Made by a program: the position numbers and the translations under genes. A DNA stretch of 64,000 nucleotides, taken from Dehalococcoidia bacterium (GTDB lineage: Bacteria > Chloroflexota > Dehalococcoidia > Lucifugimonadales > UBA3495). A model generated the notes under the pieces. It saw nothing but the letters and a program-made list of their open reading frames with translations, was not told the origin of the DNA and did no database searches. Below, piece by piece: positions 9,571 through 60,304 of this stretch; within the stretch, counting starts at the first letter, position 1, and each line of letters opens with the position of its first letter. The stretch lies in contig OZ252223.1 of the NCBI GenBank assembly GCA_965249145.1, forward strand, positions 1,673,757 through 1,737,756, read 5' to 3'.

Positions 9571-10959
9571 TTGCCGGTCCAGAGCTTCAGGCCAATGGCC
9601 AAGGATTTCCCGACCTTCGACTGCGACGCCCACATCGTGGAGCCAGCCAAAGTCTGGGAACGGGCCGCCGACAGCCTCACCAAGGACGAACTAGAGGCGT
9701 TGAAAGCGACCATGTGGTACGACACCGACTCGAACCAGTTGTTGGTCAACGGCAAGGCCGACATCAACGGCTCCTCGCCGACGCCTAGGACCGGCCCAGG
9801 GTCGATCGACATCGTCCGGCTGGCTGGCCCCGGCCTCAAGCACGACATCCAGCGCGCCTTCAACGTGCGCAACCTGCGCGGCGAAACCGCCTTGAACCAA
9901 GAACAGGCCGACTACCTGGCCCACCTCGGCGCTGATGAGCCAGGGCCCCGGCTGCGGGATATGGACGTCCAAGGCATCGACCAAGTGATGATCATTCCCA
10001 CCAGCATCGACACCTATCCATGGTTGCAGAACGCCTTGGGCGCGCGGGCCATGTGCAAGGCCTACAACGATTGGGCCTATGACTACACCCGCGAAGACCC
10101 GGATCGGCTCTTCTTCGCCGCCCTGATCCCAATGCAGAACCCACAGTACGCCGCTGAAGAGATCTACCGTGTGGCGGAACGGGGCTGCCGGGTAGCGCTG
10201 GTCCGTCCCATGGACGCCATGGGCAACTACCCGATCCAGCCCAAGTACGAGACCGTGTGGAACGCCTTGGAAGACACGGGCATGGTCTACGGGATGCACC
10301 CCTTCCCCGCCACCGGGGTCGCCAAACCGGCGGGGTACTCCGACCAGTATTCCGGCGCCGAACTGATCAGGAAGACCATCTCCACCTCGGGCCTGCCCCA
10401 CACCTTCCTGGGCAACGTGCAAGCCTTCCAAGCCGAGGCCGCCCTCTGGGTGTCCATGGTGCTGATGTCGGGCTTCTTCGAGCGCCACCCCAAAATCCGC
10501 GCCGCGGTCTTCGAGGCGTCCTCCACCTGGCTCAGCTTCCTGCTGGACGAATGCGACAAGACCTATAGGCTCTACCGGAACGACCGTCGGCTGCCCACAC
10601 TGAAGCGCATGCCCAGCGAGACCTTCTTCGAGCATTGCGTCACCGGGTTCGAGGGCGACGAGGCGCCTCCGTCCCGCCTTCCCGAGTTCTACCGCGACAT
10701 CCTCGCTTGGGCCTCCGACGTCTACCACCACGACGGAGACGATGCCTGGAGGGCCATCGAGACCATGGAGGAATGCGAGCTGCCCATCGGCGACCAAGCC
10801 CGCTTCCTCGGGACCAACGCCCGCAAGCTCTACAACATCGACGCGCCCACCAGCTTCATCCGCGACCGGGTGACCGAGATCCACCGCCCGGACTGGTGGC
10901 CCGACGAGGACGAAATCCAAGAGGCCCTCAAACCCGAGTCCTCCGTGACTCGCTGGTAG
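9571..10959 (+). CDS. amidohydrolase family protein
   Basis: TTG start 6 nt after GGAGG. FDCDAHIVEP metal-binding N-terminus. 462 aa. Confidence 0.8.
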   Translation: MPVQSFRPMAKDFPTFDCDAHIVEPAKVWERAADSLTKDELEALKATMWYDTDSNQLLVNGKADINGSSPTPRTGPGSIDIVRLAGPGLKHDIQRAFNVRNLRGETALNQEQADYLAHLGADEPGPRLRDMDVQGIDQVMIIPTSIDTYPWLQNALGARAMCKAYNDWAYDYTREDPDRLFFAALIPMQNPQYAAEEIYRVAERGCRVALVRPMDAMGNYPIQPKYETVWNALEDTGMVYGMHPFPATGVAKPAGYSDQYSGAELIRKTISTSGLPHTFLGNVQAFQAEAALWVSMVLMSGFFERHPKIRAAVFEASSTWLSFLLDECDKTYRLYRNDRRLPTLKRMPSETFFEHCVTGFEGDEAPPSRLPEFYRDILAWASDVYHHDGDDAWRAIETMEECELPIGDQARFLGTNARKLYNIDAPTSFIRDRVTEIHRPDWWPDEDEIQEALKPESSVTRW

Positions 10960-10977
10960 CCCGCGGGACCGAAAACT

Positions 10978-12258
10978 ATGACTAGCTCCATTGGCTTCGA
11001 GGTCTTCGACGGCGACTCCCACGTGGTGGAACCCCGGGAGGTGTGGGAGAAATACTTGGACCCCGAGTACCGGGTCCTCGGGAAGCATGCCCTGTGGCGC
11101 GAGGAAGGCCAGTTCGACTCCTACCTCAAGGTCAACGGGCAGGTGTTCCGCGACACGGCGAACCCCAACATCCCCCGTCACGCCATCTGGAAGCCGGGAA
11201 TGACCTGGGACTCCGTTGGCGAATTGGACCCGGACGTCCGGCACCCGATGAGCGAAGGCGCTTTCGACCCGCAGGCGAGACTGCGAGACATGGACGCGAT
11301 GGGCATCGGCCAAGCGTTCCTGTATCCCACCTGGTTTGCCGAGGGCTTCCACTTGGTGTCGGACCCGGACGTTTCCTACGCCTTGGCGCGGGCCTACAAC
11401 GACTGGATCGCCGACTTCTGCCAAGCCGCCCCGGACCGGCTCTTCGCGGCGGCGATGGTCCCCTTGGGCAACATGGACTTCGCCTTGGCCGAGTTGCGCC
11501 GGGCCGCCGAGGTCCGGTGTTTTCGCGGCGCGTTCATCCGCCCGATGTTCATGGAGGACCGGTACCTGACCCACCCCTACTACGACCCCCTGTGGGCCGA
11601 ATTGGAGCGGCTGGGCATCGCCGCCGCCGTGCACCCCGCCGCCGGGCTGTGGAACCCGGAGTGGACGTCCCACGGGCCCTTCGTGGAGAAGGTCAAGGGC
11701 CGGCTCAACCAGACCGCCGCCCAGGGTGGCGGTGGCGGAGGTCCGCAGGCTGGCGGCAGCATTGGGGACCGGAACCGCGTGTCCGGCGCGACCGGGATGG
11801 TGGAATTGGGCCATCCGCTGGCCCCGCTACTATCCCATTGGCTCGACAACCACCTGTTCGTCGCCTCCACCCTCATCGGCTACACCGTGATGCAACGCTA
11901 CCCCGATATGCGGGTGGTGGTGGCCCACGGCAAGGCCTCTTGGATGGACGAAGTCTTGGAGAAGATGGAGGCCTCGACCCGGGTCATCCCACTGCTGCAT
12001 TACTACCCGGTCCGCACCGACCCCGAGGAGATGTGGGAGGAAGGCCGCGTGATGCTGGGCTTCGACGCCGAGGAGCGGCTCATCCAAGAACTGCCGCACT
12101 CCTTCGAGAAGAAGATCGTCTGGGGCTCCCGCTACCCCCACCACGACACCACCGGGGCCCAGGACGCGGCACAAACCCTGACTCAGGCGGGCGTGCCCCG
12201 CCCCGTCATCGCCCGGATGATGGGCGAGAACGCCCGGGAGCAGTTCGGAGTAGGCTAG
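10978..12258 (+). CDS. amidohydrolase family protein
   Basis: FDGDSHVVEPREVWEKYLDPEY N-terminus and GSRYPHHD near the C-terminus. Same family as the upstream gene. Confidence 0.8.
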   Translation: MTSSIGFEVFDGDSHVVEPREVWEKYLDPEYRVLGKHALWREEGQFDSYLKVNGQVFRDTANPNIPRHAIWKPGMTWDSVGELDPDVRHPMSEGAFDPQARLRDMDAMGIGQAFLYPTWFAEGFHLVSDPDVSYALARAYNDWIADFCQAAPDRLFAAAMVPLGNMDFALAELRRAAEVRCFRGAFIRPMFMEDRYLTHPYYDPLWAELERLGIAAAVHPAAGLWNPEWTSHGPFVEKVKGRLNQTAAQGGGGGGPQAGGSIGDRNRVSGATGMVELGHPLAPLLSHWLDNHLFVASTLIGYTVMQRYPDMRVVVAHGKASWMDEVLEKMEASTRVIPLLHYYPVRTDPEEMWEEGRVMLGFDAEERLIQELPHSFEKKIVWGSRYPHHDTTGAQDAAQTLTQAGVPRPVIARMMGENAREQFGVG

Positions 12259-12334: not shown

Positions 12335-14173
12335 TTGAGTGACTTCCACAACACCGCAGTACGCAATCTGGCCATAATTGCTCACGTCGACCACGGCAAG
12401 ACCACCTTGGTCGACGCGCTGCTCAAGCAGGGTCAAGTCTTCCGCGCCCACCAGCAGGTGGGCGCCCTGATCATGGACACCAACCCCTTGGAACGGGAGC
12501 GGGGCATCACCATCTTGGCCAAGAACGCCTCGCTCTCCTACGGCGGCGTGCGGATCAACATCATTGACACGCCGGGCCACGCCGACTTCAGCGGTGAGGT
12601 GGAGCGGGTGATGAACATGGCCGACGGTTGCCTGCTGCTGGTGGACGCCGTCGACGGCCCTATGCCCCAGACCACCTACGTGCTGCGCCAAGCCCTCCGG
12701 CAGAACGTCACCCCCATGGTGGTCATCAACAAGATCGACCGCCCCGAGGCCCGGGTTGCCGAGGTTGTCGAGATGGTGCAGGACCTGTTCTTGGAGCTGG
12801 CCACCAGCGCCGAACAACTCGACTTCCCGGTGCTATTCACGTCGGCCCGCCAAGGTTACGCCACCACCGACCCCAACACGCCCGGCTCCGACATGCAGCC
12901 GCTGTTCGACGCCATCCTGGAGTCGGTGCCCCCGCCCTCGGGCGACCCCGGCGCACCGTTGCAGATGCTGGTCGCGGCGCTGGACTACGACAACTACTTG
13001 GGGCAGGTGGCCATTGGCCGGATCACCAACGGCGCCCTGCGTCTCCGGGACGACGTCGTCCTGCTCGACCGCAACGGCAACGCCAGCACCCACAACCTAG
13101 AGCGCATCTTCGTCTTCCGCGGCATGGAGCGATTGGAGGTGCCAGAGGCGTTTGCCGGGGACATCGTGGCCGTGACTGGCCCTGAAGGGGTGTCCATCGG
13201 CGACACCATCACCTCGCCGGAGTGCCCCGCGGCCCTGCCGTCCATCGACATCAACGAGCCCACGGTGCGGATGACCTTCGGCGTCAGCACCTCGCCCTTC
13301 ATGGGGCGGGAGGGCGACCACTGCACCTCCCGGAACCTGCACGAGCGGCTGCTGCGAGAACTGCGCACCAACGTCAGCCTGCGCGTGGAGAACACCGCCA
13401 GCCCCGACGTGTTCGTCGTCGCGGGGCGGGGCGAGTTGCACCTTTCGATATTGGTGGAGACGATGCGCCGGGAGAACTACGAGTTCCAGGTTTCCCGGCC
13501 CTCCCCGGTCCTCAAGATAATCGACGGCGCGGTACACGAGCCCTACGAGGTCCTGAACATCAGCACCCACGAAGACCACGTCGGTATGCTGACCGAATAC
13601 CTCTCGGCCCATTTGGCCCAGCTCCGGGACATGCGCTACGGCGACGACGGCTACGTCCACCTGGAGTACAGGATACCCACCCGGGGCCTGATCGGCTTCA
13701 ACGCCTTCTTCCTTCGCACCACCCGGGGCGACGGGGTAAAGAACAGCATATTCACGTCCTACGAGCCGATGCAGGGCGAGATAAAGTCCCAGCGGGGCGG
13801 CGCATTGGTGGCGGCGGAGGGCGGGGCGGCGGTGACCTACGGCCTGCTCAACGCCCAAGGGCGGGGCGACACCTTCATCGATCCGGGCGTCATGGTCTAC
13901 GAGGGCATGATCGTCGGCGTCCAACGTCGGGAGGCTGACATCGAGATCAACGTCTGCAAGGAAAAAAAGCTGACCAACATGCGCTCCTCGACGGCCGACG
14001 TGGCCAAGCGGCTCAACGCCACGGTCCGGATGAGCTTGGAAGAAGCCTTGGGGTTCATCGCCGACGACGAACTGGTGGAGGTCACACCCCGGAACCTCCG
14101 CCTCCGCAAGGCGGAACTGTCCGCCCTAGACCGCAAGCGCCAACGCCGCGACGGTCCCCGAGCCCGCGACTGA
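12335..14173 (+). CDS. typA: translational GTPase TypA/BipA
   Basis: [23 protein letters not shown]1 motif and DTPGHADF G3 motif. 612 aa, colinear with BipA. TTG start after AGGGTGA. Confidence 0.95.
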
Positions 14174-17240: not shown

Positions 17241-18421
17241 GAATCCTCTGAAAAAGGGCCGTCATCGTTAGGGGTGGTGATAGGATGCGGGGGTAGGAGA
17301 GAGGAACCGGGGAGGGGTGCAGATGCGGGGAGCGAGCTTTTCGGACTTGGAATACGAAGGGAAGAAGCGGAAGACGCGAAGGGAACTGTTCTTGGAGCGG
17401 ATGGACGGGCTGATCCCCTGGCGGCGGTTGGAGGAGAGGATCGAGCCCTTCTACCCCAAGGAGGGACGGGGCCGAAGGCCCTACCCGTTGCCGGTGATGC
17501 TTAGGGTCCACTGCGTCCAGCTTTTCTACAACCTGAGCGACCCCGACATGGAGGACCTGCTCTACGAGGCCGAGTCGGTTAGGCGTTTCGTGGGGGTCAG
17601 GCTGTCCGACGCCCTACCCGACGAGAGCACCATCCTGCACTTCCGCCATCTCTTGGAGAGGCACAATCTGGGGAAGGCCCTCTTTGAGGCGATTGGCGAG
17701 CACCTGGAGGCGCAGGGGCTCCGGCTCAGGGAGGGGACGATAGTGGACGCCGCCATCATCGAGGCACCGTCGTCGACCAAGAACCGCCGGGGTGAGCGGG
17801 ACCCGGAGATGCACCAGGTAAAGAAGGGCAACGAGTGGCATTTCGGGATGAAGCTGCACATCGGTGTGGACGCCCAGAGCGGGGTGGTACGCAGCGTGTC
17901 GGTCACGGCGGCCAACCGACACGACGTTACGGAGGCCCACCGGTTGCTGCACGGCGGGGATCGGCGGGTGTGGGGGGATGCCGGGTACAAGGGGATCTAC
18001 AAGCGTGAGGAGACCCGTGGGTTGGCTGTGGAGTGGCGGGTGGCGATGCTGCCGGGGCAGCGCAGGAAACTGGACCCGGGCAGCCCGGATGCGGCGTGGG
18101 AGCGGGCCAAGGCGTCGGTCCGGGCCAAGGTGGAGCACCCGTTCTTACGGGTAAAACGGCAATTTGGCTACGCCAGGGTGCGTCACCGGGGTTTGGCCAA
18201 GAACGGGGAGCGGCTGGCGCTGCTGCTGGGGTTGGGCAACCTGATCACCGCCCAGCGCCATCCGGCGGCCTGACCGGGGGAGCAGTGCGCCCTCTATCCC
18301 GGTGAGAGTCCCCGGTAGGGGAACCAAGAGCCTTTCCCAGACCAAAGCTCTCTTCAGATAGCCGTCCTCAAGACCCTCGCCCGGTCTGACAGCCCATCAG
18401 GCCGGGTTGTTCAGAGAATTC
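17241..18421 (+). mobile_element. IS5-family insertion sequence (IS5 group)
   Basis: Termini are GAATCCTCTGAA (left) and TTCAGAGAATTC (right), flanked by CTAG at 17237-17240 and 18422-18425. The inverted match can be extended to 20 bp (17233-17252 versus 18410-18429, 1 mismatch) because CCTAGG is palindromic. It encodes one DDE transposase. Confidence 0.8.
17317..18273 (+). CDS. IS5 family DDE transposase
   Basis: 318 aa. Has the N-terminal DUF772-like region (YPLPVMLRVHCVQLFYNLSD), the DDE core (IVDAAIIEAP .. GDAGY) and the C-terminal VEHPFLRVKRQFGYARVRHRGLAKN motif. Confidence 0.9.
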   Translation: MQMRGASFSDLEYEGKKRKTRRELFLERMDGLIPWRRLEERIEPFYPKEGRGRRPYPLPVMLRVHCVQLFYNLSDPDMEDLLYEAESVRRFVGVRLSDALPDESTILHFRHLLERHNLGKALFEAIGEHLEAQGLRLREGTIVDAAIIEAPSSTKNRRGERDPEMHQVKKGNEWHFGMKLHIGVDAQSGVVRSVSVTAANRHDVTEAHRLLHGGDRRVWGDAGYKGIYKREETRGLAVEWRVAMLPGQRRKLDPGSPDAAWERAKASVRAKVEHPFLRVKRQFGYARVRHRGLAKNGERLALLLGLGNLITAQRHPAA

Positions 18422-33679: not shown

Positions 33680-33883
33680 ATGTTCTGGTTGAAGGGCTGC
33701 CGACGCTGCGAGGGAGACGTGTACCAGGGCGAGGACATCGCCGGAAAATACCTGGCCTGCATCCAGTGCGGCCACTACCTTTCGGACTTGGAGACGAGTC
33801 AGCTGATGGGCAAATGGCCCGTGCTCGTTCCTAAAGCCAGCTTACCCGGCGAGCGCCGCGGCCCAATGCAGGCCGTGGCGTGA
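33680..33883 (+). CDS. small zinc-ribbon protein (CxxC...CxxC)
   Basis: MFWLKGCRRCEGDVYQGEDIAGKYLACIQCGHYL. AAGGAGGGG lies upstream. Its stop overlaps the hpt GTG start (GTGA). Confidence 0.5.
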   Translation: MFWLKGCRRCEGDVYQGEDIAGKYLACIQCGHYLSDLETSQLMGKWPVLVPKASLPGERRGPMQAVA

Positions 33884-34592: not shown

Positions 34593-34766
34593 ATGGTAAT
34601 GGAACGAGACCAAGCGCAGATGGTTGCGGAATTGCCCGCCCCTCCGGTCTGTCGGCATCACTGGATCATCGAGCCAGCCAGCGGCCGGTTCAGCCGAGGA
34701 GAGTGCCAGATCTGCCATCAGGTTAAGGAATTTCAGAACTCCATAACCGAGGCAGAAGCGGAATAG
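34593..34766 (+). CDS. 57-codon Cys/His-rich mini-ORF (below the 60-aa ORF-track cutoff)
   Basis: Own translation: MVMERDQAQMVAELPAPPVCRHHWIIEPASGRFSRGECQICHQVKEFQNSITEAEAE. AGAGAGG lies about 8 nt upstream. It ends 42 nt before the tubulin-like gene. Confidence 0.45.
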   Translation: MVMERDQAQMVAELPAPPVCRHHWIIEPASGRFSRGECQICHQVKEFQNSITEAEAE

Positions 34767-34808
34767 CCTTCAGCAACCAGCGCCAGAACTCACGGGAGGT
34801 GTGGAGAT

Positions 34809-35927
34809 ATGAGGGTACTGTGGTTAGGGTTCGGACAAGCTGGAGGCAAAATCGCCGACGCGATGATGGCAACGCGGCGACGTGTCTATAACGCCATCGC
34901 CATCAATACCGAGGAGGCCGACCTGGCCGGGCTACGCCACATCCGGCGCCGTGTCCTGATCGGTAAGTATGCGCTCCAGGGCCGGGGAGTGGGCTCCGAC
35001 ATCGACCTTGGCGCATCGATCGCCGAGAAAGCCCTTTCTCAGATGATGGACAAGGTGGACGAGGTGGTCCGCGTCCACGACCCGGAAGCAATCTGGATCG
35101 CAGCCGGTCTGGCCGGAGGCACCGGCGCCGGCGGGTCCTTCGTGTTGGCCAACGAGTTGAAGCGCATCTACCGGGCGATTCCGGTGTTCGGGCTGGGCGT
35201 AGTGCCTTCGGTATCGGGCATGCCCGGTGACAAAGAGGCGCTTAGCCTGTCCAATGCCATCAAGAGTTTCGAGCTCTGGAGTCACTACTTCAACAACATC
35301 ATGCTGGTCGACAACCAACAGTTTGAAAACAACATGGTTAGTCGCGAGTCGGTGGAAAACATCTATCAGCGGATCAACAACCACTTGGCCCACATGCTGA
35401 CCACCCTACTCACCGCTGGCGAGATACGCCCCGCCCCTCAAGAGGTCTTTAGTTCCTCCGAGGTTAAGGCGACCCTGGGGCTGATCGGCGACGTGTCCAC
35501 CATTGGGTTCTGCCGGGAGAACATCAAGATGAAGAGCAAGTTCTGGAGGCCCGGTATCGACCCGGGCACCCACGAACTGGAAAGCATAATCGAGCGCAGC
35601 GTGGCCAGTTCCGCGCTGACTTTCCCCGCCGACGTTAGCGGGGCCCGCAATGCCTCGCTGATCGTCCACGGCAAGCCCAAGCACCTCTTCACCCAGTCGA
35701 TCAACCGCGGCAAGGCGCGGCTGGAAGAGCTGACCAGGGTGGGCAAGGTACGCTACGGCGACTATCCCGACCGCAACACGCAGCAGCTTTCGGCCATCAC
35801 GATGGTATCGGGGATCACCGACTTCTCCCGCTTGGACGAGATGCGCCGACGGGTCCAAGAGCTCACCAGCTCCCGCCCAACCAACGGCCACGCCCACATC
35901 GACACAAGAGACCGGGTGGTCGTCTAA
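34809..35927 (+). CDS. tubulin/FtsZ-superfamily GTPase, CetZ-like
   Basis: GFGQAGGK (aa 7-14) forms a T1-like loop. The tubulin signature AGGTGAG is at aa 102-108 (nt 35112-35132). LVDNQQF and SSSEVKATLG are also present. Colinear resemblance to archaeal CetZ as I recall it (IGFGQAGGK, GVGxDxxLGAxIAE, LKRIY, GLG, GDYP). GGAGG RBS. Confidence 0.8.
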   Translation: MRVLWLGFGQAGGKIADAMMATRRRVYNAIAINTEEADLAGLRHIRRRVLIGKYALQGRGVGSDIDLGASIAEKALSQMMDKVDEVVRVHDPEAIWIAAGLAGGTGAGGSFVLANELKRIYRAIPVFGLGVVPSVSGMPGDKEALSLSNAIKSFELWSHYFNNIMLVDNQQFENNMVSRESVENIYQRINNHLAHMLTTLLTAGEIRPAPQEVFSSSEVKATLGLIGDVSTIGFCRENIKMKSKFWRPGIDPGTHELESIIERSVASSALTFPADVSGARNASLIVHGKPKHLFTQSINRGKARLEELTRVGKVRYGDYPDRNTQQLSAITMVSGITDFSRLDEMRRRVQELTSSRPTNGHAHIDTRDRVVV

Positions 35928-38695: not shown

Positions 38696-39466
38696 CTAGC
38701 GCCGCCGACGGGACCTCAGCTCCCGAATCATGGTTTCGACGGCTGAGCGGTCGACGCCCAGCTGGACCGAGACCTCGATGTCACGCACCGCCAACGCGTC
38801 TTCCCCAAGCATGGTGCGGGCGATGGCGCGGTTCACGTAAGCAACGGCGAACGTCGGTTCCAGCCGGATGGCGTAGTCGAGATCGGGGACCGCCAGGTCC
38901 AATTGGCCCAGGTCTATGTAGGCGTCGGCGCGGTTGTTGTAAGCCTCGGGAAAGCGTTTGTTGATCCGAATGGCCTGACTGAAGTCATTGATGGCTGCTG
39001 GCAGCCGTCCCGCCTGTTTGTGGGCGTAGCCCCGGCCACTGAAGGCTGCGGCAAACTTGGTATTAAGGCGAATGGCCCTCGAAAGGTCCAGAATGGCGTT
39101 GTCAAAATACCCCATCGCCTCGGCTGGCGAATCGGGCGCTTCCTCTTTCTTCTTGGCCCCCAGGGAGATGTTGGCATGGCCCCGGGTGCTGTAGGCCACC
39201 GCCATGTCCGGCGAAAGTTCGATGGCCCGGTCCGCGTCGCGCAGAGCTGCCTCGGCATCCCCAAGCACCAGGTGAGCGTTGGCCCGGTTGTTGTAGGCGG
39301 GCACCAGTGCAGGGTTGAGATTGATGGCCTCGGTGTAAGCGAGTAACGCCTCCTCGAACTGCCCGCGCCGCTGCTGACGCACTCCGTAGTCGTACCATTT
39401 CTCCGGCTCTGGCTTCCCCAGGGAACCGGGAAGGAAACGGGCCAAGATACCCTTAACGTCCGGCAT
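38696..39466 (-). CDS. tetratricopeptide repeat protein
   Basis: Repeated AYxNRGxA / AIxLxP TPR units across 256 aa. Confidence 0.8.
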   Translation of the reverse strand: MPDVKGILARFLPGSLGKPEPEKWYDYGVRQQRRGQFEEALLAYTEAINLNPALVPAYNNRANAHLVLGDAEAALRDADRAIELSPDMAVAYSTRGHANISLGAKKKEEAPDSPAEAMGYFDNAILDLSRAIRLNTKFAAAFSGRGYAHKQAGRLPAAINDFSQAIRINKRFPEAYNNRADAYIDLGQLDLAVPDLDYAIRLEPTFAVAYVNRAIARTMLGEDALAVRDIEVSVQLGVDRSAVETMIRELRSRRRR

Positions 39467-39866
39467 TCCTGATCCGTATCTGTTCTATCTGAAGCTCGAC
39501 AGACACCCGGTCTGCACCAAGGGAGACCGCCTGTTCCAGGTCAGCGAGGGCATCATCGTCACGGCCAATGACGGTGTACATCATACCCCGGTTGACGTAG
39601 GCGTCGCGAAAGCCAGGGTTGTTTCTGATAGCTATGCTAAAGTCCAGGATGGCCCGTTCTGGAGCGCCTATGGCTAGGAAGAGGACGCCGCGATGGTAAA
39701 AGACCTTGTCGTTGTTGCGGTCGATCCCGGCGGCGCGGTTGAAGTACCACAAAGCCCTGGTGGGATGGCCCCAACGGGCGTAAAACAGGCCCCAGCTGCA
39801 GTAAAAAAAGCAGAGGCCCGCCTTGAGCCAGCGGTAGAGGTTCCCCAAGACCGACAGCAAAGCCAT
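39453..39866 (-). CDS. TPR protein with N-terminal hydrophobic segment
   Basis: 137 aa. Has TPR units (AYVNRGMMY) and overlaps the downstream TPR gene by 14 nt. Confidence 0.7.
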   Translation of the reverse strand: MALLSVLGNLYRWLKAGLCFFYCSWGLFYARWGHPTRALWYFNRAAGIDRNNDKVFYHRGVLFLAIGAPERAILDFSIAIRNNPGFRDAYVNRGMMYTVIGRDDDALADLEQAVSLGADRVSVELQIEQIRIRNAGR

Positions 39867-47335: not shown

Positions 47336-48700
47336 ATGAATTTTCACCGGACCGCGCGCGATGATGCTCGGGCGGGCGGGGGTGATGACCTTGATTTGGC
47401 TTCACCGATTGATCGCCCCGCGCCATCGCTAGGTGGCTTGCTGCTCGTCTCCCTGTTGGTGATGTTGAACCTGCCGATGACCTTCACCTTACTTACCGGA
47501 ACAGACCCATACGGCTTCTTCACACTAGAGTCCGTATCGGCCTATCCTCTGCCGCTCGTTCTGTCTACCGGGCTGAGTTCGGCCCTTGCCCTTGTGGGGT
47601 ACGTTGGTTATCGCTGGCTGCGGAGGCGTCAGCTGTGGTTCACAGGAGTTCATTGGAGTCCGATCGCGAGGGGCGCGGTATTGTGTGGGCCGCCTGTGCT
47701 TCTCGCATACCTACCGATCATCGTCCTATCGAGCCACGGGTGGAAGCCAACTCATTTGGCGTTGGGAGCGGTGATTGCCGGAGCGCTAGCCGTCACCCAC
47801 TGCCTTAGAGACGAGGAGATGCACCTGGATCCAGCGATGGGCAGATACTGGTTCATCTGCATTCTAGGCTCGATCCTTGTGTTCCTCGTCCTCTGCATTG
47901 GCGCAATGATCGTGCTGTACGAGGTCGAGCAGTTCCCCGCGTCCGGCAATATCCTGTGGGCATGGGAATACCGCTGGTCAGAACTAGGGTATCCCCCAGA
48001 AGAGTATGACACACGGCACCGCGACGGTCTCCTGGCCTTTACGGCGATTGGAGTGGGTTTCATGATCGCGGCGCTCGGTGGGAGCATGATGGCGGCGCTC
48101 CTCAGGTGGACGCGTTCGCCCGACTCGGTAATCTCGAATTCACTGGACACTCACCGGCTTCAGGACGCCCCTCCGTGGGTCACGGAAATCGGTAGTCAAC
48201 TGGATGCGCTCGAACCACCCGCTCCGGGTGAATCCAGGTATGCCGCTCTTTTCAGCGGCTACAGGATCGACATCACTGGCAGCCAGTACGAGTGCTTGGC
48301 CGCTCTCAAGGATGATCTGCTGAACGGCGTCGATTTGATTGTCGACAGGGTCGCGGGCGACGTTTTCGTTCAGAGCGCCGGGACTTGGACACGGCTCGAC
48401 TTCCGCGTCCGAGGTCGATCGGGCGGCACATGGAGCGGTCCGTTCTTGCTATTATGCATATTGGCACGGCACCCAGGCCGGAGATTCGCGAGCGCCGAGC
48501 TGCGGGTCCTTCTGGAGTCCGAGCTTGCCGACCGGGCTTGGTTCAACGTGGGTGACTTCATCGCACAGCTTCAGCGGAGACGTCGTCTCCCTGTAGGGCG
48601 AGATGAAAGGGGTTCATTCTTACAAGAGAGTATCAGGGTATGCCTATTGGAGCATCAACGGAAACCGGTTGAGCGCCATCCCGAGCAAGCCAACGAGTAG
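47336..48700 (+). CDS. polytopic membrane protein with C-terminal OmpR/PhoB-type winged-helix-like domain
   Basis: 454 aa. Several hydrophobic helices in the first ~260 aa. The C-terminal FLLLCILARHPGRRFASAELRVLLES...VGDFIAQLQRRRR resembles the trans_reg_C pattern. The start is uncertain. Confidence 0.55.
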   Translation: MNFHRTARDDARAGGGDDLDLASPIDRPAPSLGGLLLVSLLVMLNLPMTFTLLTGTDPYGFFTLESVSAYPLPLVLSTGLSSALALVGYVGYRWLRRRQLWFTGVHWSPIARGAVLCGPPVLLAYLPIIVLSSHGWKPTHLALGAVIAGALAVTHCLRDEEMHLDPAMGRYWFICILGSILVFLVLCIGAMIVLYEVEQFPASGNILWAWEYRWSELGYPPEEYDTRHRDGLLAFTAIGVGFMIAALGGSMMAALLRWTRSPDSVISNSLDTHRLQDAPPWVTEIGSQLDALEPPAPGESRYAALFSGYRIDITGSQYECLAALKDDLLNGVDLIVDRVAGDVFVQSAGTWTRLDFRVRGRSGGTWSGPFLLLCILARHPGRRFASAELRVLLESELADRAWFNVGDFIAQLQRRRRLPVGRDERGSFLQESIRVCLLEHQRKPVERHPEQANE

Positions 48701-50677: not shown

Positions 50678-50949
50678 AGCATGTTGGGCCACCTTAAAAA
50701 TTTCCTCCGCGATGATCGTTGTCGTAGGTAGGCGCGTCCTGAATAGTCGTCACCAGTTTCGAATGGACGATCCGGGGGTCCTCCGACGCGCCTGGACTCC
50801 CTAGATAGCTCTTCAGTAGGGATGACGGCCATGGATGGAATTCCATGCACGAGACCGCAGTCTTGGGTCTATATCCAACTCGCACCGGCTGACGGAACTC
50901 GGACTAGGGGTGGGACTGGCCGAACTGGGATCGTTAAAGGGGGTTATTG

Positions 50950-52128
50950 ATGGCTCTGCGAACAGCATGGGCTCAGCTAATTCGGCGCTTGGCTTACGGG
51001 GTCTTGGCTGCCTTGACCGCCGGCGGCCTTGCCGCCTGCGGTGGGGGTTCTACAGCCGGGGATGGAATCGCGGGGCTGTTGGCGCTGGTTCCCGACACCT
51101 CCGAAACCCGTCAGTTCGTCGCCGTCAATGATTACGCCAAGGCCCGCGACGCCTTCGCCATACCCCTGCCGGGCGACAGCGCCGACGAAGAGGATATATC
51201 CGACTACATAGCGGCGGTCCTTTCGGGTCAGACAGGGGTGATGCCGGGTCCATGGATCAGCGGCTTCAGCGAGCACGGATTTGCCTTCCCTGACAACCGC
51301 GAACATCTGGGGTTCGACGTGCGAAATGTCGAATTCAGCATCATGGCAGGATTCCCTCCCGGTGTTTTGGAGGTGGTCAAAGGGCGATTCAATCCGCAGG
51401 CTACGGAGCGGGTCATCGAAGGATGCTCGGAATGTCCTCCTCCGGAAAGAAAGGAAGTCGAGGGGACCGAATTCTACAGCTGGTTCGGAGACCACGAGAT
51501 GTCTCTCCAAGACCGCCTCAGACCCCCCGCGTTCGATGCACTGGGCAGAGGCGGGCGGATCGCGGTGCTGGATTCTCTGGTCTTCCGGACCGTGGAGACC
51601 CCTGGAATGAGAGCCTTAATTCGGACGTTCCGGGGGAAGGAAGACTCGTTGGCAGATGATTCGGACCTGGCATTGGCCGCTGAGAAGATGGACAGTCTCG
51701 AAGTCTATTCCGGGCTGCTGATTGGCGACACGGCGTCCCTTGGCGCGGATGCCGTGATTGAAGGCCTCTGCGCCAACGTCAGCTCGCGGGAGTGCCGTCA
51801 GATCGAGGATGCGATTACCGGGGGAGTCGGCCCACTTGACGAATATGAGGCTCTGGGGGCCGGGGTTGGAAGAGACGAGGATGGCACGTTCAACGCCGTG
51901 ATTTTCGTGTACGGCAGCGAGGATGCCGCGAAGCGCAATGCCCGGCAATTCGAGGAGCTGCTAGAGCAAGGAGAAAGCATCCTCGCTCGCCGCTCATGGA
52001 GCGAGATCGTGCTCGATGCCGATGTGTGGGCGGAAGACAGGACTGTCATAGGAAAGCTGAGGTCGATAAGCCCGGCACTCTGGGTGCAGGCAGTACATGC
52101 TCGGGACTCGCTGTATATGCACGAATAG
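50950..52128 (+). CDS. hypothetical lipoprotein
   Basis: ATG at 50950 after AAGGGGG. Signal peptide with lipobox LAACGG. No recognised domain. Confidence 0.6.
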   Translation: MALRTAWAQLIRRLAYGVLAALTAGGLAACGGGSTAGDGIAGLLALVPDTSETRQFVAVNDYAKARDAFAIPLPGDSADEEDISDYIAAVLSGQTGVMPGPWISGFSEHGFAFPDNREHLGFDVRNVEFSIMAGFPPGVLEVVKGRFNPQATERVIEGCSECPPPERKEVEGTEFYSWFGDHEMSLQDRLRPPAFDALGRGGRIAVLDSLVFRTVETPGMRALIRTFRGKEDSLADDSDLALAAEKMDSLEVYSGLLIGDTASLGADAVIEGLCANVSSRECRQIEDAITGGVGPLDEYEALGAGVGRDEDGTFNAVIFVYGSEDAAKRNARQFEELLEQGESILARRSWSEIVLDADVWAEDRTVIGKLRSISPALWVQAVHARDSLYMHE

Positions 52129-52831: not shown

Positions 52832-54478
52832 TTAGGCGGCACGGTTCGGGGTTCCCGCCCCGGTATTGGCGCCTATTCCCGCCTTGGCCGCGATCAGGGT
52901 CAGGTTCGCCACCGTGGACGCCAGGTATAGCTGGAACCGGGTCTTGATGCGACCGAAGTAGCGGGACTGACGGACCCCCAACTGGACCATCCGGGCCAGC
53001 CGGTGCTCCACCACGACCCGTCGCCGTCGATACTCGGCAAAGGCTTCGCTCTGCTGGAGGGCGCGTGCCTCCTGCAAAAGGGCTTCTTGGGGGTGTAGCC
53101 GCACCGTCCGGCCGATGCCCGGTCCCGCCGCGACACATTGGGCCCGCAGCGGGCACGCTCCACACACCGCCCCGCCGAACTGGAAACCTTCCAGCTTGTG
53201 ATTTCGGCCCGTCAAGTCGGTCCGCCGCTCCGCCTTGCGCATCTTGCCGGTAACCTGCCCAGCCGGACAGGTGCAGGTCCCAGCCTCCAGGTCAATCCTG
53301 AAGTCCTCCTTGGGGAAGTGGGACCTGTTGGGACGTCCGGGCACCTTGGCAATCAGCCGGCGTCCGGCGTCGGCGAAAGCCTGACGGGTGCCTCCATCTC
53401 CGTACGCCGTGTCGCCCATGGCCTCCGCCACCGGCACACCGGTGCTGGCCTCGCTCTGCTCCACCAGTTCCAGCGCGCCGGCGCTGTCCCAAGCGTTGCC
53501 GGCCAGAACGTCCACGGCGGTGATCAGTTGGGAATCGGTGTCCACCACCACCGCCGCCTTGTGCCCGTCGAACCGCTTGCTGCTGCTCTTGTGGCCGTGG
53601 CGCATCTCCGGGTCGTGGACCGACAATATCCGGTCCTTGCTCACCCCTGTCTTTAGGCCAACTTCCCCACCGGACCGTTCCACGTCCTGGAGCAGCAACT
53701 GCCCCAGCAGCTCCGCCGCGTTCACGATTCCCTGCCGCTCAACGCTCTCCTCAGGCAATTCCCGCCGCGCCTGCCGCGCCAGTCCCAACAGCCGGTCCGC
53801 GTCAGCCACGATCGATGCCAGCAGGGACGCCCGCGCCCGCTGGTCCGCCCAGTCGATGGCCGCCTCACCCTTCACGCTGGAGCCGGTGTACCGCCCATAG
53901 TCGTGGAATTCAGCCCACTCTTTGACGGAGGACTTCTCCACGGCTGCCAGCGCCCGCAACAGCTTGACGATCCCGTCCGCCACCAGGTTGCAGGTATCCT
54001 TGACTGCGCCCCGGCCCAGGATGTACGTCGTGTCCAATGCCACCCTCATGCCACGTCTTTTCAGGTAGCCGGACTTCCGGGCCAGCCGCAGGCTGGATTC
54101 GAATACCTGGCGCACCTTGTCGTGGAGGACCAACTGCGCGCGGAATACCTGTAGCGTGCTCTTGGCGAAGGGCCGGTCTTCAACCTCAATCCCCAAGGCC
54201 ACTTTCCAACGGATGTCGAAGTCGGCCCTGGCCTTGGCTTCGGCGTCGCTCACCTTGTCGTAGCACTGGAGCAGAAGCGCCGTCGCCAGCTGGCTGGGCG
54301 GCACGCTCTCGCGCCCGTTGTCGGGACAGTAGAACTCGGCAAAGTCAGCATCCCGGAACAACTGCCCACGCAGCGAGGCCAGCACACCGTAGAAGGTGTC
54401 CCGCCCCACATGGTCGAGGTACAACCGGTCGGCTTCCCAGAGGCCCCTTTGATCAGACCGCTCTCCCAGCATCCCCAC
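52832..54478 (-). CDS. DDE transposase, IS5/IS1182 superfamily (DUF772-type N-terminus, Cys motif, DDE_Tnp_1-type C-terminus)
   Basis: 548 aa, apparently intact. NGRESVPPSQLATALLLQCYDKVSDAEA, CGACPLRAQC and VVVEHRLARMVQLGVRQSRYFG motifs. Element ends are unresolved (see findings). Confidence 0.85.
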   Translation of the reverse strand: MGMLGERSDQRGLWEADRLYLDHVGRDTFYGVLASLRGQLFRDADFAEFYCPDNGRESVPPSQLATALLLQCYDKVSDAEAKARADFDIRWKVALGIEVEDRPFAKSTLQVFRAQLVLHDKVRQVFESSLRLARKSGYLKRRGMRVALDTTYILGRGAVKDTCNLVADGIVKLLRALAAVEKSSVKEWAEFHDYGRYTGSSVKGEAAIDWADQRARASLLASIVADADRLLGLARQARRELPEESVERQGIVNAAELLGQLLLQDVERSGGEVGLKTGVSKDRILSVHDPEMRHGHKSSSKRFDGHKAAVVVDTDSQLITAVDVLAGNAWDSAGALELVEQSEASTGVPVAEAMGDTAYGDGGTRQAFADAGRRLIAKVPGRPNRSHFPKEDFRIDLEAGTCTCPAGQVTGKMRKAERRTDLTGRNHKLEGFQFGGAVCGACPLRAQCVAAGPGIGRTVRLHPQEALLQEARALQQSEAFAEYRRRRVVVEHRLARMVQLGVRQSRYFGRIKTRFQLYLASTVANLTLIAAKAGIGANTGAGTPNRAA

Positions 54479-54622: not shown

Positions 54623-55165
54623 TGACCGGCAGGGTGCAGGTCCCGGTTAATTGGTTTACTGGCCGCGGAGCCTACGCGGCATACGCCGGGTTGGCCCGCC
54701 ACAGCTTCAGCAGGTTGTGGGTCAGGGCCACCAGGGTGAATTCGCCGGCCACCTTGCCTATGCCCCGGAGCAGGAATTGCCTAAAGCCCCGGACCTGTTT
54801 GATCAGCCCGAAAACCGGCTCGGTGATGGCCTTGCGCCGGGCGTAGACCGCCTTCCCCTCTGGGGTCTGCAGCTTGGCCCGCATCGCGGCCCTGAGGGGC
54901 GTACGGGTCCGCACCCGGCCGCCGCTGACCGGCAGGGTGCAGGTCCCGGTTATTGGTTTACTGCCTACGCGGCATACGCCGGGTTGGCCCGCCACAGCTT
55001 CAGCAGGTTGTGGGTCAGGGCCCCAGGGTGAATTCGCCGGCCACTTGCCTATGCCCCGGAGCGCCTAAAGCCCCGGACCTGTTTGATCAGCCCGAAAACC
55101 GGCTCGGTGATGGCCTTCGGGCGTAGAGCTGCAGCTTGGCCCGCATCGCGGCCCTGAGCGGGTCC
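54623..55165. repeat. tandem direct duplication (about 303-bp unit) of the transposase 3' end; the second copy is decayed
   Basis: TGACCGGCAGGGTGCAGGTCCCGGTTA occurs at 54623 and 54926. Copy 2 follows copy 1 colinearly but carries several small deletions. Confidence 0.8.
54672..54995 (-). pseudogene. IS1182 transposase C-terminal fragment
   Basis: RRKAITEPVFGLIKQVRGFRQFLLRGIGKVAGEFTLVALTHNLLKL is the conserved C-terminal DDE_Tnp_1_6-type motif. Confidence 0.7.
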
Positions 55166-56270
55166 GCAGCCGCTCCCGGTAGTGTCTCTCCCTTCCCGTC
55201 GCTCGATCCTCTTTCCAGCCAATAGCCCCAGGTCCCGTTCGCTGCCCCGCATCGGCGGTGAAACGTTGGGGACGCCGCTCCCCCTCGAGCAGTCCCAGGC
55301 TGGCCAGGTTCCGCTCCATCAGTTCCAGCACGGGTGCCAGCCGGGGGCTGTCGGCGCTCTGGGCGCTCACCTCCTGGGCCACGATCACCCCGCTCTCCTC
55401 CTCCACCAGCACCTGGGCGTTGTACCCTTGCACCCAGCCGTGGGAACTCTTCATGATCCGGCTGTCCGGGTCGGTGAAGTTGCTCTGCTCCTTGGGGCCG
55501 GGCACCGCCTTGGCCGCCGCCTCTTCGGTCTCGGCCTCGCTGGCTCCCCTGGCTTCGGCCCGGCCCTTGGCCCTGGCCTTGGCCTTGGCACGCTCTTCAA
55601 GCCTCGCCTTGGCCTCCCTCAGCTTGGCCAGACGGCTCTCCCGTCTCTGCAGCTCTGCGGGCAGCTCGTCCTCCCGGTACTCCGGGCCGAACTCCTCGTC
55701 CTCGGCCTCGTCAATCTCCTGGGCCCGGCGCAGCATCTCCTTTACCTCGGTCTCCAGCCGCAGCCCGGTCTCCAAGATCCGCCCGTAGCTCATCGCCTTG
55801 TGCTTGGACGCGTTGGCCTGGTACTTGCTACCGTCCAATGAGAGGTGTCCCAGCTTGAGCAACCCCGCCTCCCGGCACAGCCGCAATACCTCCAAGAACA
55901 GCCCCTCAAAGGCTTCCAAGTGGTTCTTCCGAAAGTCGGACACCGTGCGGAAATCGGGGAACTGGCCTCCGGAGAGCACCCTAAAGGCCACGTCGCTCTC
56001 ACAGGCCGAGGCTATCTTCCGGGAACTGTAGACCCCCCGGCAGTAGCCGTAGAGCAGCACGGTCAAAAGCATCCGGGGATGATAGGCCCGGGGGCCCCGG
56101 CCCTTCCGGTAGCGCCGGGTGATCTTCTTCAGGTCCACCATCCCCACCGCCTCTTCCAAAAACAGGGCCAGGTGCCCCTTGGGCAGCCACTGCCGGGGCT
56201 CTTGCGGCAACAGATAGGTTTGGTCCAGCGAGTAGTCCCGAAATCCCTTGGCCATCTTCCACCTCCCCAC
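55065..56270 (-). pseudogene. IS1182 transposase N-terminal and coiled-coil part, truncated after the ADAG motif
   Basis: MAKGFRDYSLDQTYLLPQEPRQWLPKGHLALF..FTDPDSRIMKSSHGWVQGYNAQ..FTADAG, then out-of-family sequence. The central catalytic part is missing. Confidence 0.75.

Positions 56271-57234: not shown

Positions 57235-60304
<3,070 letters not shown>

Follow-up and report, generated by a model that had tools for sequence, protein, structure and literature searches.

Genes and features at the locus

The window (the whole 64,000-nucleotide stretch of DNA that was analysed) contains on its forward strand an open reading frame at 34809..35927, which starts with ATG, encodes 372 amino acids and, judging by its sequence, is a working-looking copy of CetZ in a marine SAR202-type (Dehalococcoidia) bacterium. 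The first-pass annotation had singled out this frame because of its motifs, all of which were found at the residues it had given: GFGQAGGK at 7-14, AGGTGAG at 102-108, LVDNQQF at 166-172, SSE at 216-218 and GDYP at 317-320. The CetZ motif set that it had listed is also present, except that 'IGFGQAGGK' reads LGFGQAGGK here. The N-terminal part of the protein is a tubulin/FtsZ-type GTPase domain (aa 1-175, 34809..35333, forward strand), matched by the Pfam Tubulin profile (PF00091) across aa 3-174 (5.3e-20, 73 bits). On the same strand, it harbors the T1 loop GFGQAGGK (nt 34827-34850), the T4 signature AGGTGAG (nt 35112-35132) and LVDNQQF (nt 35304-35324). Residues G7, G9, G103, G104, G106, G108 and N169 do not vary in an alignment of 67 members of the bacterial clade described below, and the AF2 model, with a pLDDT of 89.5 for the whole protein, reaches 91-98 in the GTPase-domain region.

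The second domain (aa 180-349, 35346..35855, forward strand) is of the CetZ type. It matches Pfam CetZ_C (PF21011) at 4.8e-28 over profile positions 2-178 of 180, scoring 98.2 bits where 21.6 is the cutoff. Within it lie GDYP (nt 35757-35768, forward strand) and SSE (nt 35454-35462, forward strand), which had been proposed to sit at the site of the T7-loop catalytic Glu. Indeed, E218 aligns with E218 of CetZ1 (4b46), the position being counted from the phmmer alignment, and it is invariant among 17 aligned sequences and reaches at least 90% conservation when 67 are aligned. The last structured element according to DSSP on the AF2 model is a C-terminal helix (aa 340-354, 35826..35870, forward strand), a region conserved throughout the clade (consensus DFSRLDQMRKRV-EL). 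It is followed by a disordered tail (aa 355-372, TSSRPTNGHAHIDTRDRVVV, together with the stop codon at 35871..35927, forward strand), delimited from AF2 pLDDT, which falls below 50 for residues 358-372, and from a comparison of tails. Most close orthologues have a tail that terminates in a semi-conserved peptide, ...D-[GS]-V-[VP]-E-P-[ST]-x-[VI], of which the window tail is a divergent variant that retains the hydrophobic terminus alone. A frameshift was considered as the cause of this divergence and rejected, as none was found. The earlier remark that the protein lacks the FtsZ C-terminal peptide thus holds in the sense that no peptide of FtsZ type is present, but most close orthologues possess a conserved terminal peptide of their own.

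Immediately 5' of cetZ, on the same strand, lies a conserved small open reading frame (sORF) of 57 amino acids (MVMERDQAQMVAELPAPPVCRHHWIIEPASGRFSRGECQICHQVKEFQNSITEAEAE, 34593..34766) with a Cys/His core that reads C-x-HHW-[IV]-I-[ED]-x3-G-x4-G-x-C-x2-C-x4-[EDQ]-F-x-[NK]-S. A single copy occupies this position at 36/36 loci (window included), these being the loci with a CetZ at least about 69% identical; loci L044-L047 carry the sORF upstream of cetZ too. Mean pairwise differences at codon positions 1, 2 and 3 amount to 0.18, 0.11 and 0.46, dN/dS is 0.096, and C20, H22, H23, W24, C38 and C41 show no variation across 53 sequences. The family comprises at least 1349 clusters, and all source names that bear an organism refer to Chloroflexi, SAR202 or Dehalococcoidia. 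No Pfam domain occurs among the 120 family matches listed, and the sORF itself gave DUF5817 as its sole, sub-threshold match against Pfam (E = 0.02). In the AF2 model the core forms three strands at pLDDT 81-85; Foldseek returned nothing significant from the PDB, with zinc fingers and ribbons appearing at E >= 0.2. We regard the product as a putative zinc-binding (zinc-ribbon-like) protein that is a candidate for partnering or regulating the CetZ-like protein.

The two genes are separated by a spacer of 42 nt (34767..34808, forward strand), in which the sequence reads a Shine-Dalgarno GGAGG (34795-34799) that lies 9 nt ahead of the ATG of cetZ, at a position conserved in aligned upstream regions. 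Neither a sigma-70-like promoter nor a convincing terminator was found between sORF and cetZ or around the pair, and the two are probably co-transcribed as a two-gene operon. An RNA element in the spacer was also considered and dismissed: the stem-loop conserved at related loci shows weak covariation (-0.5 kcal/mol), has no Rfam match and is missing from the window.

Every sORF-bearing locus has the C-terminal tail, and the proteins of sORF-less loci, 350-353 aa long, lack it; this co-occurrence is phylogenetically confounded because each feature has a single origin. The CetZ of the SAR202-type subclade has gained a tail of ~20 residues with a conserved terminal peptide, and the small Cys/His protein would be a dedicated partner (an adaptor, an anchor or an assembly regulator) that possibly contacts CetZ by docking on this tail. 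Given that the window tail is devoid of the consensus terminal peptide, the docking idea is weakened for the window gene. We found no published account of the sORF-cetZ pairing or of a lineage-specific C-terminal tail peptide.

Relation to CetZ, FtsZ and other tubulin-superfamily proteins

The first-pass annotation had considered the protein CetZ-like rather than a canonical FtsZ, and had suggested a profile search, a structure comparison, a phylogeny, a composition check and a survey of related genomes. Its observation is confirmed and its interpretation supported: profiles, closest sequences and closest structures all favor CetZ. CetZ_C and Tubulin were matched, but the protein failed the FtsZ equivalog model TIGR00065, reaching 63.3 bits where 295.2 are required and matching the GTPase half alone, and the Pfam search of the 372-aa protein gave neither an FtsZ_C (PF12327) nor a Tubulin_C match. 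In phmmer searches of the PDB, 4b46 (CetZ1) was matched over the full length at 1.1e-55 and 4b45 (CetZ2) at 8.7e-36, whereas any FtsZ stood at ~1e-8 and all non-CetZ entries at 3.5e-08 or weaker. CetZ1 and CetZ2 were also ranks 1 and 2 when the AF2 model was compared by Foldseek (TM 0.80-0.90, 30-33% identity), against a TM of ~0.71 and 14-18% identity for FtsZ.

Compared to Haloferax volcanii CetZ1 (HVO_2204) and CetZ2 (4b46 and 4b45, both with PF00091 and PF21011), the window protein shares the fold and the two-domain architecture, is likewise without an N-terminal extension, and has in common the T1 and T4 loops, the T7 Glu and a C-terminal helix followed by a disordered tail. Nonetheless, it is only about 33-37% identical to archaeal CetZ. 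Further differences concern the tail, which in the bacterial proteins is non-acidic and ends in a ...VPEPSxV-type peptide, whereas haloarchaeal proteins end in ...ELxSLF/Y; the upstream sORF, of which no counterpart lies beside cetZ at the one haloarchaeal locus examined (L042); and the host, which in the case of the bacterial clade is a bacterium that has FtsA/FtsZ as well. With bacterial FtsZ the window protein has the superfamily, the GTPase fold and presumably the polymerisation chemistry in common, but it has neither FtsZ_C nor the FtsZ-type C-terminal peptide. Within the tubulin/FtsZ superfamily CetZ makes up the third main branch, and the functional literature labels it archaea-specific (PMC9856176, PMC11621097). 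The protein departs from this description in its host, and the criterion concerned is taxonomic, not molecular; the archaea-specific label had already been contradicted by one published survey (PMC9871819).

Chromosomal location, distribution and origin

The surroundings of the gene are bacterial, as had been claimed. We located in the window a bacterial LSU rRNA (57235-60305, 2674 bits), a tRNA-Met (60390-60464) and TypA/BipA (12335-14173). Across 30-41 kb neither tetranucleotide composition nor GC3 shows a break, the cetZ region having a tetranucleotide z of +0.2 to +0.3 and a neighbor-like GC3 of 0.81. Moreover, orthologues occur in at least 37 Dehalococcoidia/SAR202/Chloroflexota species genomes, on bacterial contigs of 1.5-4.5 Mb and on a closed 4.1-Mb chromosome (OZ240213.1), and in these 37 independently assembled genomes they are always flanked by bacterial genes. 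The suspicion that an archaeal fragment was joined to a bacterial contig by faulty assembly or binning draws on nothing beyond the archaeal reputation of the CetZ family. The continuous composition and the orthologues on megabase contigs and a chromosome exclude such a mis-assembled fragment, the low identity to any archaeal CetZ also speaks against it, and we consider its probability negligible. The window cetZ is a native chromosomal gene of a SAR202-type member of the Dehalococcoidia (Chloroflexota). It is also under strong purifying selection, with a median dN/dS of 0.108 over 386 cetZ-like pairs.

The same observations bear on the idea that the protein forms a DNA-segregation filament of a plasmid, a prophage or another mobile element, as TubZ or PhuZ do. 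TubZ is indeed among the weaker matches (4ei7, RepX, labeled Bacillus cereus TubZ by Foldseek; 3.5e-08 by sequence, TM 0.76 by fold), and transposase genes are found elsewhere in the window and near cetZ in one related locus (L001). However, CetZ_C is matched over the whole C-terminal domain, the composition is native, dozens of species keep the gene at a stable place in the chromosome between housekeeping or catabolic genes, and the recurrent neighbor families include no TubR-like centromere-binding partner and no phage gene. TubZ/RepX, PhuZ and BtubA/B (the latter matched at about 0.007-0.009 in the PDB phmmer search) all are tubulin-superfamily proteins found in bacteria outside a division role, but they have different C-terminal domains, the window locus is neither plasmid nor phage, and the window gene is without the paired A/B subunit of BtubA/B. 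A segregation filament is thus very improbable.

In a neighbor-joining (NJ) distance tree, the only type of tree built and with a single FtsZ outgroup, the bacterial CetZ-like sequences form one clade with a bootstrap of 98-100 of 100. The clade falls among archaeal CetZ and far from Dehalococcoidia FtsZ, on a long separate stem; its position relative to CetZ1 and CetZ2 is unstable, as it lies inside the most recent common ancestor of the two in 14/60 NJ replicates. Among named outgroups, archaeal CetZ of Halogeometricum and a Thermococci protein come nearest, and the best candidate for an archaeal sister group receives <=13% bootstrap, so that both the donor and, strictly speaking, the direction of transfer are argued by parsimony from how the family is distributed over taxa. 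The named CetZ-like matches all come from Dehalococcoidia/SAR202. Most probably, cetZ would have been acquired once, from a euryarchaeon, by an ancestor of these bacteria and inherited vertically since. BtubA/B is another case that is regarded as inter-domain transfer.

The first-pass annotation had offered a choice between inter-domain transfer and an undescribed bacterial clade. The clade is real but has in part been noted before, since Santana-Molina et al. (2023; PMC9871819) reported CetZ-like sequences in Chloroflexota-Dehalococcoidia, in one passing sentence, as 'sparse paraphyletic groups'. Both sets are bacterial, come from Dehalococcoidia and are matched by the CetZ C-terminal HMM, and they are very probably the same proteins. 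That paper contains no analysis of their context, partners, selection or function. In contrast to the paraphyly it mentions, we find one well-supported clade that spans at least 37 species genomes and carries the sORF in one subclade.

Possible roles of a bacterial CetZ

Food for interpretation comes from the cell biology of the host lineage. SAR202 bacteria have no peptidoglycan genes and possess an S-layer-like coat (PMC10444878; PMC11994032), and SAR202 and Dehalococcoidales retain mraZ-mraW-ftsA-ftsZ (PMC10608941; PMC11994032), which is also what we rely on for the retention of FtsZ/FtsA in SAR202. In Haloferax, CetZ1 is needed for the rod shape and for the motility machinery to be assembled (PMC13644373, PMC11621097). 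On balance, and slightly in preference to doubt, we favor the reading that the window encodes a genuine and functional CetZ, native to a SAR202-type bacterium, that serves as an archaeal-type, GTP-driven cytoskeleton of cell shape and envelope. Like Haloferax CetZ1, the protein would bind GTP through its T1-T6 loops and polymerise head to tail, E218 in the T7 loop of one subunit completing the GTPase site of the next. The result would be dynamic filaments beneath the cell envelope, which may set or remodel the cell shape and organise envelope-associated machinery. Polymerisation and cellular role are what we infer from the sequence and its relatives. Because the SAR202 cell lacks peptidoglycan, bears an S-layer-like coat and keeps FtsZ/FtsA, an additional, archaeal-style cytoskeleton is most likely, and not a division ring.

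Alternatively, the protein could be a division-associated paralogue that co-assembles with the FtsZ/FtsA ring or modulates it, comparable to the two FtsZ paralogues of archaea. The earlier statement that the gene is not in a dcw-type neighborhood is true of the window. Nonetheless, in a deeper subclade (L004/L035, L036 and L037) cetZ lies ~1.5 kb from mraZ-rsmH-ftsA-ftsZ, so that canonical ftsZ-ftsA and cetZ share one contig, an adjacency that fits a division-related role equally well. In a homology search with the FtsZ of L004, the cetZ-bearing contigs recovered among the best 120 matches were those of this subclade, SAR202 FtsZ lying outside these 120. Additionally, SAR202 bacteria are without ftsW, ftsI and mur genes (PMC11994032; PMC10608941), and their division must therefore proceed without wall synthesis. 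However, neither the window nor any of the 36 SAR202-type loci shows the ftsZ-ftsA adjacency. It is confined to three species that are related to each other (CetZ identity 69-84%) and may simply have inherited it, and since these genomes are close relatives we gave it less weight as evidence of function. In these loci cetZ and ftsZ-ftsA are moreover convergent and form no common operon, and in Haloferax it is FtsZ1/FtsZ2 that act in division, while CetZ1 acts in rod shape and motility (PMC11459167, PMC11621097). We therefore hold a role in division to be unlikely, although worth keeping in mind.

Another conceivable role is that of a dedicated scaffold that serves the machinery of the archaellum or of type IV filaments, in which cetZ was acquired with the archaellum cluster, or recruited for it, and contributes to polar positioning or assembly. 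Dehalococcoidia and Anaerolineae received a complete archaellum locus from Methanotecta, and SAR202 members carry it (PMC12488501; PMC10444878), loss of CetZ1 in Haloferax impairs the assembly of archaellum-base and chemosensory proteins (PMC13644373), and in Thermococcales and certain Halobacteria cetZ adjoins regulons for type IV pili (PMC9856176). The best-scoring archaeal relatives of the window protein are haloarchaeal CetZ1-type proteins. Halobacteria are part of the Methanotecta. Against this role, no arl or che gene occurs within about 8-10 kb of cetZ at any of the loci examined or among about 30 window ORFs scanned, and none of the named CetZ-like matches comes from Anaerolineae, which are recipients of the archaellum as well. 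Archaellum genes are further restricted to certain SAR202 groups (PMC11994032), and no candidate for the donor lineage of cetZ exceeds 13% bootstrap. An origin or recruitment of this kind appears rather improbable, somewhat more so than a part in division.

A broader version of the preferred reading, in which CetZ is a cytoskeleton of shape and envelope, is more speculative, and we regard it as unlikely. CetZ filaments would shape an S-layer-bounded cell and help to place the archaellum or chemosensory machinery, in the manner of Haloferax CetZ1, and SAR202 would later have evolved an accessory of its own, the zinc-ribbon-like product of the sORF docked on the newly acquired tail peptide of CetZ; the wall-less Dehalococcoidia would then have imported a working module of archaeal cell biology and not the archaellum alone. 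If this were true, no other organism would be known to have a dedicated partner that binds CetZ, and the sORF product would be comparable to the adaptors of the FtsZ C-terminal peptide. In the CetZ literature we found a description of MinD-dependent localisation and no direct binding partner, and the linked small Cys/His protein is a concrete candidate for such an interaction partner.

A conserved and clearly functional CetZ lineage in bacteria means that the family passed from one domain of life into another and was long retained, in bacteria that lost peptidoglycan in favor of an S-layer-like coat and also took archaella from archaea. These organisms provide an independent natural experiment on what CetZ filaments require in order to function, namely a wall-less envelope and neither an archaeal membrane nor archaeal partners. 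They also add a cytoskeletal item, of which we found no mention in the archaellum literature, to the archaeal genes acquired by Chloroflexota.

As for the genes beside cetZ, those in the window are hpt, a cyclase, CoxG and an M20 peptidase, and what is conserved beside the gene at SAR202-type loci are TPR proteins and enzymes of catabolism (cyclase, CoxG, M20 peptidase); a link by neighborhood to genes of cell shape, the envelope or motility did not emerge across the loci compared. The basal members of the clade (P0118, P0121, P0122 and P0124; 35-43% identity) lie on short contigs, where their neighbors (MetRS, a kinase, APH and an amidohydrolase) are non-diagnostic.

Identity and origin of the CetZ protein

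We found the open reading frame (ORF) in which the first-pass annotation had seen a bacterial CetZ at 34809-35927 (+); starting at ATG, it codes for a 372-aa product, and a GGAGG Shine-Dalgarno sequence lies 9 nt upstream. The motifs quoted for it lie at residues 7-14 (GFGQAGGK), 102-108 (AGGTGAG), 166-172 (LVDNQQF), 216-218 (SSE) and 317-320 (GDYP). The family profiles agree: Pfam CetZ_C (PF21011) matches at 4.8e-28 (98 bits vs a cutoff of 21.6, nearly the entire profile covered) and the Tubulin/FtsZ GTPase domain at 5.3e-20, whereas the NCBIfam FtsZ equivalog scores 63 bits, far below its cutoff of 295, and over the GTPase half only. Among all PDB sequences, the top match is full-length Haloferax volcanii CetZ1 (4b46; 1.1e-55), followed by CetZ2 (4b45; 8.7e-36). 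FtsZ, TubZ/RepX and BtubA/B all match at 3.5e-08 or weaker, and a TubZ-like segregation filament is effectively excluded. The SSE glutamate, proposed as the T7 equivalent, aligns exactly with E218 of CetZ1 (4b46), which we take to be the T7 catalytic residue, its mutation presumably giving a GTPase-defective protein. A GTPase-defective CetZ mutant has been described (PMC13644373). A confident AlphaFold2 model (mean pLDDT 89.5, pTM 0.88), for which 67 sequences of the clade were the input, is disordered only at residues 358-372. In Foldseek searches of the PDB, CetZ1 and CetZ2 rank first (TM 0.80-0.81 by query and 0.90 by target, 30-33% identity), ahead of FtsZ structures (TM ~0.71, 14-18% identity). 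The product displays all testable molecular features that define CetZ and is a bona fide member of the family in a bacterium.

The surroundings are bacterial, as had been claimed: the window carries a bacterial LSU rRNA gene (57235-60305; 2674 bits), a tRNA-Met gene (60390-60464) and TypA/BipA (12335-14173), besides genes for an Opp-type ABC transporter and for numerous paralogous enzymes of catabolism (amidohydrolases, luciferase-like monooxygenases, family III CoA-transferase, MmgE/PrpD). A chimeric contig had been raised as a concern. Tetranucleotide profiles (4-kb windows) run continuously across 30-41 kb, matching the window-wide profile like other regions (z = +0.2 to +0.3), and the GC3 of cetZ (0.81) lies within that of its neighbours (0.72-0.91). 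A word-indexed search returned 147 relatives of the protein, ~118 of them at 51-78% identity; all organism-bearing source names were Chloroflexi or Dehalococcoidia, and several relatives lie on contigs of 1.5-4.5 Mb. A scan limited to a single genome for each GTDB species found a CetZ-like gene in 37 genomes labelled Dehalococcoidia, Chloroflexota or 'SAR202 cluster', which stem from many separate studies and include the 4.1-Mb chromosome OZ240213.1; it also gave one haloarchaeon. An assembly artefact is effectively excluded.

Identity falls sharply outside the bacterial clade: in an exhaustive representative search, three sequences from short contigs (35-43% identical) were followed by archaeal CetZ, at 36% for Halogeometricum and 34% for a member of the Thermococci. 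A distance tree built from 110 full-length sequences, including CetZ representatives and one Dehalococcoidia FtsZ, recovers the clade as monophyletic in 98-100 of 100 bootstrap replicates and places it among archaeal CetZ, far from the FtsZ. No candidate sister group exceeds 13% bootstrap, and only 14 of 60 replicates nest the clade within the common ancestor of CetZ1 and CetZ2, which argues for a CetZ branch that is deep and separate. Given the wide occurrence of CetZ in Euryarchaeota and its restriction, within Bacteria, to Dehalococcoidia, a single ancient archaeon-to-bacterium transfer would be most parsimonious. The median dN/dS of cetZ (0.108 over 386 locus pairs) and the conservation of E218 and of the glycines in T1 and T4, all invariant or nearly so across the clade, point to a maintained, functional gene. 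At one related locus (L039, CAXXFI010000002.1, a 1.65-Mb contig), the cetZ-like gene (~8001-8994) is split into ORFs of 133 and 226 aa, with the small upstream gene intact; the cause is either recent pseudogene formation or an indel error in the long reads.

A small upstream gene and the CetZ tail

Alignment of the 450 nt upstream of cetZ in 40 loci uncovered a conserved block with substitutions mostly at third codon positions. In the window it is a 57-aa Cys/His gene at 34593-34766 (+), hereafter sORF, ending 42 nt before cetZ. An HMM finds one copy, always immediately upstream and co-directional, in 36 of 36 loci with CetZ at least ~69% identical to the window's (the window included), and no copy in the deeper subclades with upstream sequence (L003/L031, L033, L035-L038, L043, L048/L049) or at the haloarchaeal locus. 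Divergent homologues, looked up independently, again sit directly upstream of a Tubulin plus CetZ_C gene, and the window's own sORF protein is recorded on a 3.42-Mb contig. Mean pairwise differences at codon positions 1/2/3 (0.18/0.11/0.46) and a dN/dS of 0.096 show that sORF encodes a real protein. Its invariant residues are C20, H22, H23, W24, G31, S34, G36, C38, C41, F47, N49 and S50; the core (C-x-HH...C-x2-C), which looks zinc-ribbon-like, lies between an N-terminus that is acidic and variable and a C-terminus that is also acidic. At 90% identity the family comprises at least 1349 clusters. Among the matches listed, organism-bearing source names are only Chloroflexi, SAR202 and Dehalococcoidia, all are 'hypothetical', and none of 120 has a Pfam domain. 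The sole profile match is a sub-threshold DUF5817 (E = 0.02). The AF2 model (three short strands, core pLDDT 81-85) resembles no known structure significantly; zinc fingers and ribbons lead the insignificant matches. None of the papers we found mentions this gene.

The C-terminal tail of CetZ tracks sORF presence. In the sORF-bearing subclade CetZ has roughly 373 aa, running ~20 residues past the last helix to a semi-conserved end (e.g. ...TDSVVEPSVI or ...DGVPEPSTV); at loci without sORF it has 350-353 aa and stops right after the helix. The correlation is phylogenetically confounded because each arose only once. These tails are unlike those of haloarchaeal CetZ1-type proteins, which have an acidic linker and a terminal ...ELxSLF/Y. 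By analogy with adaptors on the FtsZ C-terminal peptide, the sORF protein might dock on the CetZ tail. The window's tail (...HIDTRDRVVV) is off consensus, and a search for a frameshift as the cause found none.

Several related loci (L007, L008, L009, L010, L013-L018, L020-L022, L025, L040) have a longer sORF-cetZ spacer, of 140-230 nt against the window's 42 nt (L007, ~3440-3616, for example). A conserved stem-loop in this spacer, GUGCGGUCCGG-CCAGCC-UU-GGCUGG-...-GGGCCGACAC, stops immediately ahead of the Shine-Dalgarno sequence (24 pairs by RNAalifold, covariation term only -0.5 kcal/mol). The stem-loop has no Rfam match and might regulate cetZ translation as a hairpin in the 5'-UTR. Further upstream in the window, a 67-aa zinc-ribbon-like ORF with two Cys pairs (GCRRCEG...ACIQCGH; 33680-33883 (+)) ends at the hpt start; it has no Pfam match and is unrelated in sequence to sORF.

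Gene neighbourhood and possible function

In SAR202-type (sORF-bearing) loci, sORF-cetZ is followed on the opposite strand by a cyclase-family protein, CoxG, an M20 peptidase and TPR proteins, an order that probably reflects descent rather than function since the genomes are close relatives. In a deeper subclade (L004/L035, L036, L037; CetZ 51-55% identical to the window's) the order is MeaB-like GTPase and cetZ, then in convergent orientation a 265-aa Ig-like protein, a 99-aa protein, ftsZ, ftsA, rsmH and mraZ; an FtsZ homology search, with matches on contigs of identical length, confirmed the co-location. These loci prove that a CetZ-like gene occurs alongside a canonical pair of FtsZ and FtsA. 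A division-associated role for CetZ, a rival reading, would draw on this adjacency, which may simply be inherited since the three genomes share 69-84% CetZ identity.

The MeaB-like G3E GTPase (PF03308, 5.3e-88; 2769-3746 in L035) is directly upstream of cetZ and co-directional in all three species. After ftsZ lie two conserved uncharacterised genes (~99 and ~265 aa), the longer with a weak Ig-like Big_6 match. TPR genes occur within ~4 kb downstream of cetZ in SAR202-type loci (245-aa and 134-aa genes; in the window at 38696-39466 (-) and 39453-39866 (-)) and two positions upstream in deep-subclade L004 (762-2363 (-)) and L036 (533-561 aa). TPR proteins are common and this proximity may be chance, yet the pattern spans the deepest split of the clade.

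It is near-certain that this is a native, functional bacterial CetZ, predicted to bind and hydrolyse GTP and to polymerise through the conserved T7/E218 interface. As for its role, only context and analogy guide the choice among shape, division and archaellum-scaffold readings. The dcw and peptidoglycan genes were lost in the common ancestor of SAR202 and Dehalococcoidales, which keep adjacent mraZ-mraW-ftsA-ftsZ, identified with TIGR00065 (PMC10608941). SAR202 have S-layer-type envelopes and make neither peptidoglycan nor LPS; ftsZ, ftsA and ftsK are kept, ftsW and ftsI are not (PMC11994032; PMC10444878). We consider it moderately likely that in such wall-less, S-layer-coated cells, still dividing with FtsZ/FtsA, CetZ would form an additional cytoskeleton beneath the envelope that shapes the cell or organises the envelope, with the zinc-ribbon-like sORF protein as a lineage-specific accessory.

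Alternatively, CetZ might be a dedicated scaffold for the archaellum or a type IV filament. Haloferax requires CetZ1 to change from plates to rods and to assemble archaellum-base and chemosensory proteins (PMC13644373), type IV pilus regulons adjoin cetZ genes in Thermococcales and in certain Halobacteria (PMC9856176), and a complete archaellum locus passed in parallel from Methanotecta archaea to Dehalococcoidia and Anaerolineae, including Litorilinea, which encodes peptidoglycan synthesis (PMC12488501). No archaellum or chemotaxis genes were found within ~8-10 kb of cetZ at any locus examined, or among ~30 window ORFs scanned. All named CetZ-like matches are Dehalococcoidia and none Anaerolineae, so the distribution, within limited sampling, fits a correlation with wall loss somewhat better than one with the archaellum.

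The observation stands, and its interpretation as a bacterial CetZ is supported overall; that the clade was undescribed holds only in part. Santana-Molina et al. noted Chloroflexota-Dehalococcoidia CetZ-like sequences in one sentence of a 2023 survey, their CetZ C-terminal HMM matching at ~1e-10 (PMC9871819); context, partners and possible meaning are unpublished. We found no other relevant paper linking CetZ with Chloroflexi, Chloroflexota or Dehalococcoidia. A diversity review surveying only archaea terms CetZ 'specific to the archaea' (PMC9856176), a 2024 paper opens by calling it 'archaea-specific' (PMC11621097), and the Chloroflexota archaellum papers list Mbh hydrogenase, malate dehydrogenase and A-type ATP synthase as archaeal acquisitions, with CetZ, tubulin and cytoskeleton unmentioned (PMC12488501; PMC10444878). 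Our analysis adds that the clade is both monophyletic and widespread, is native, and evolves under strong purifying selection; that it coexists with FtsZ/FtsA; that it occurs in lineages reported to lack peptidoglycan, some with archaella of archaeal origin; and that in SAR202-type members a small Cys/His gene is tightly linked to cetZ, whose product has a matching tail peptide.

Other features of the window

Three long ORFs have no Pfam match at E <= 1e-5 (9691-11814 (-), 707 aa; 47336-48700 (+), 454 aa; 50947-52128 (+), 393 aa); some may be spurious, as is common in high-GC DNA, and others uncharacterised proteins. A 94-nt tRNA-Thr(GGT) called by ARAGORN at 1514-1607 (-), where the Rfam tRNA model is silent at gathering score, may be intron-containing, otherwise atypical or a false positive. 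The tRNA-Met(CAT) gene lies within 85 nt after the 23S rRNA gene. At Rfam gathering thresholds there is no 16S rRNA in the 57 kb upstream of the 23S and no 5S rRNA anywhere in the window, and the arrangement looks unlinked or atypical. Of three DUF772/DDE-type transposase genes (17317-18273 (+), 52832-54478 (-), 55065-56270 (-)), two lie a short way upstream of the 23S gene; related loci L001 and L002 also have IS110 and DDE transposases on the flanks of their cetZ region. Finally, Hen1 (Hen1_L plus methyltransferase, 7.8e-108; 4357-5742 (+)) and Pnkp (kinase-phosphatase-ligase, PNKP_ligase 4.3e-174; 5739-8303 (+)), overlapping at their ends, form a bacterial RNA repair system.
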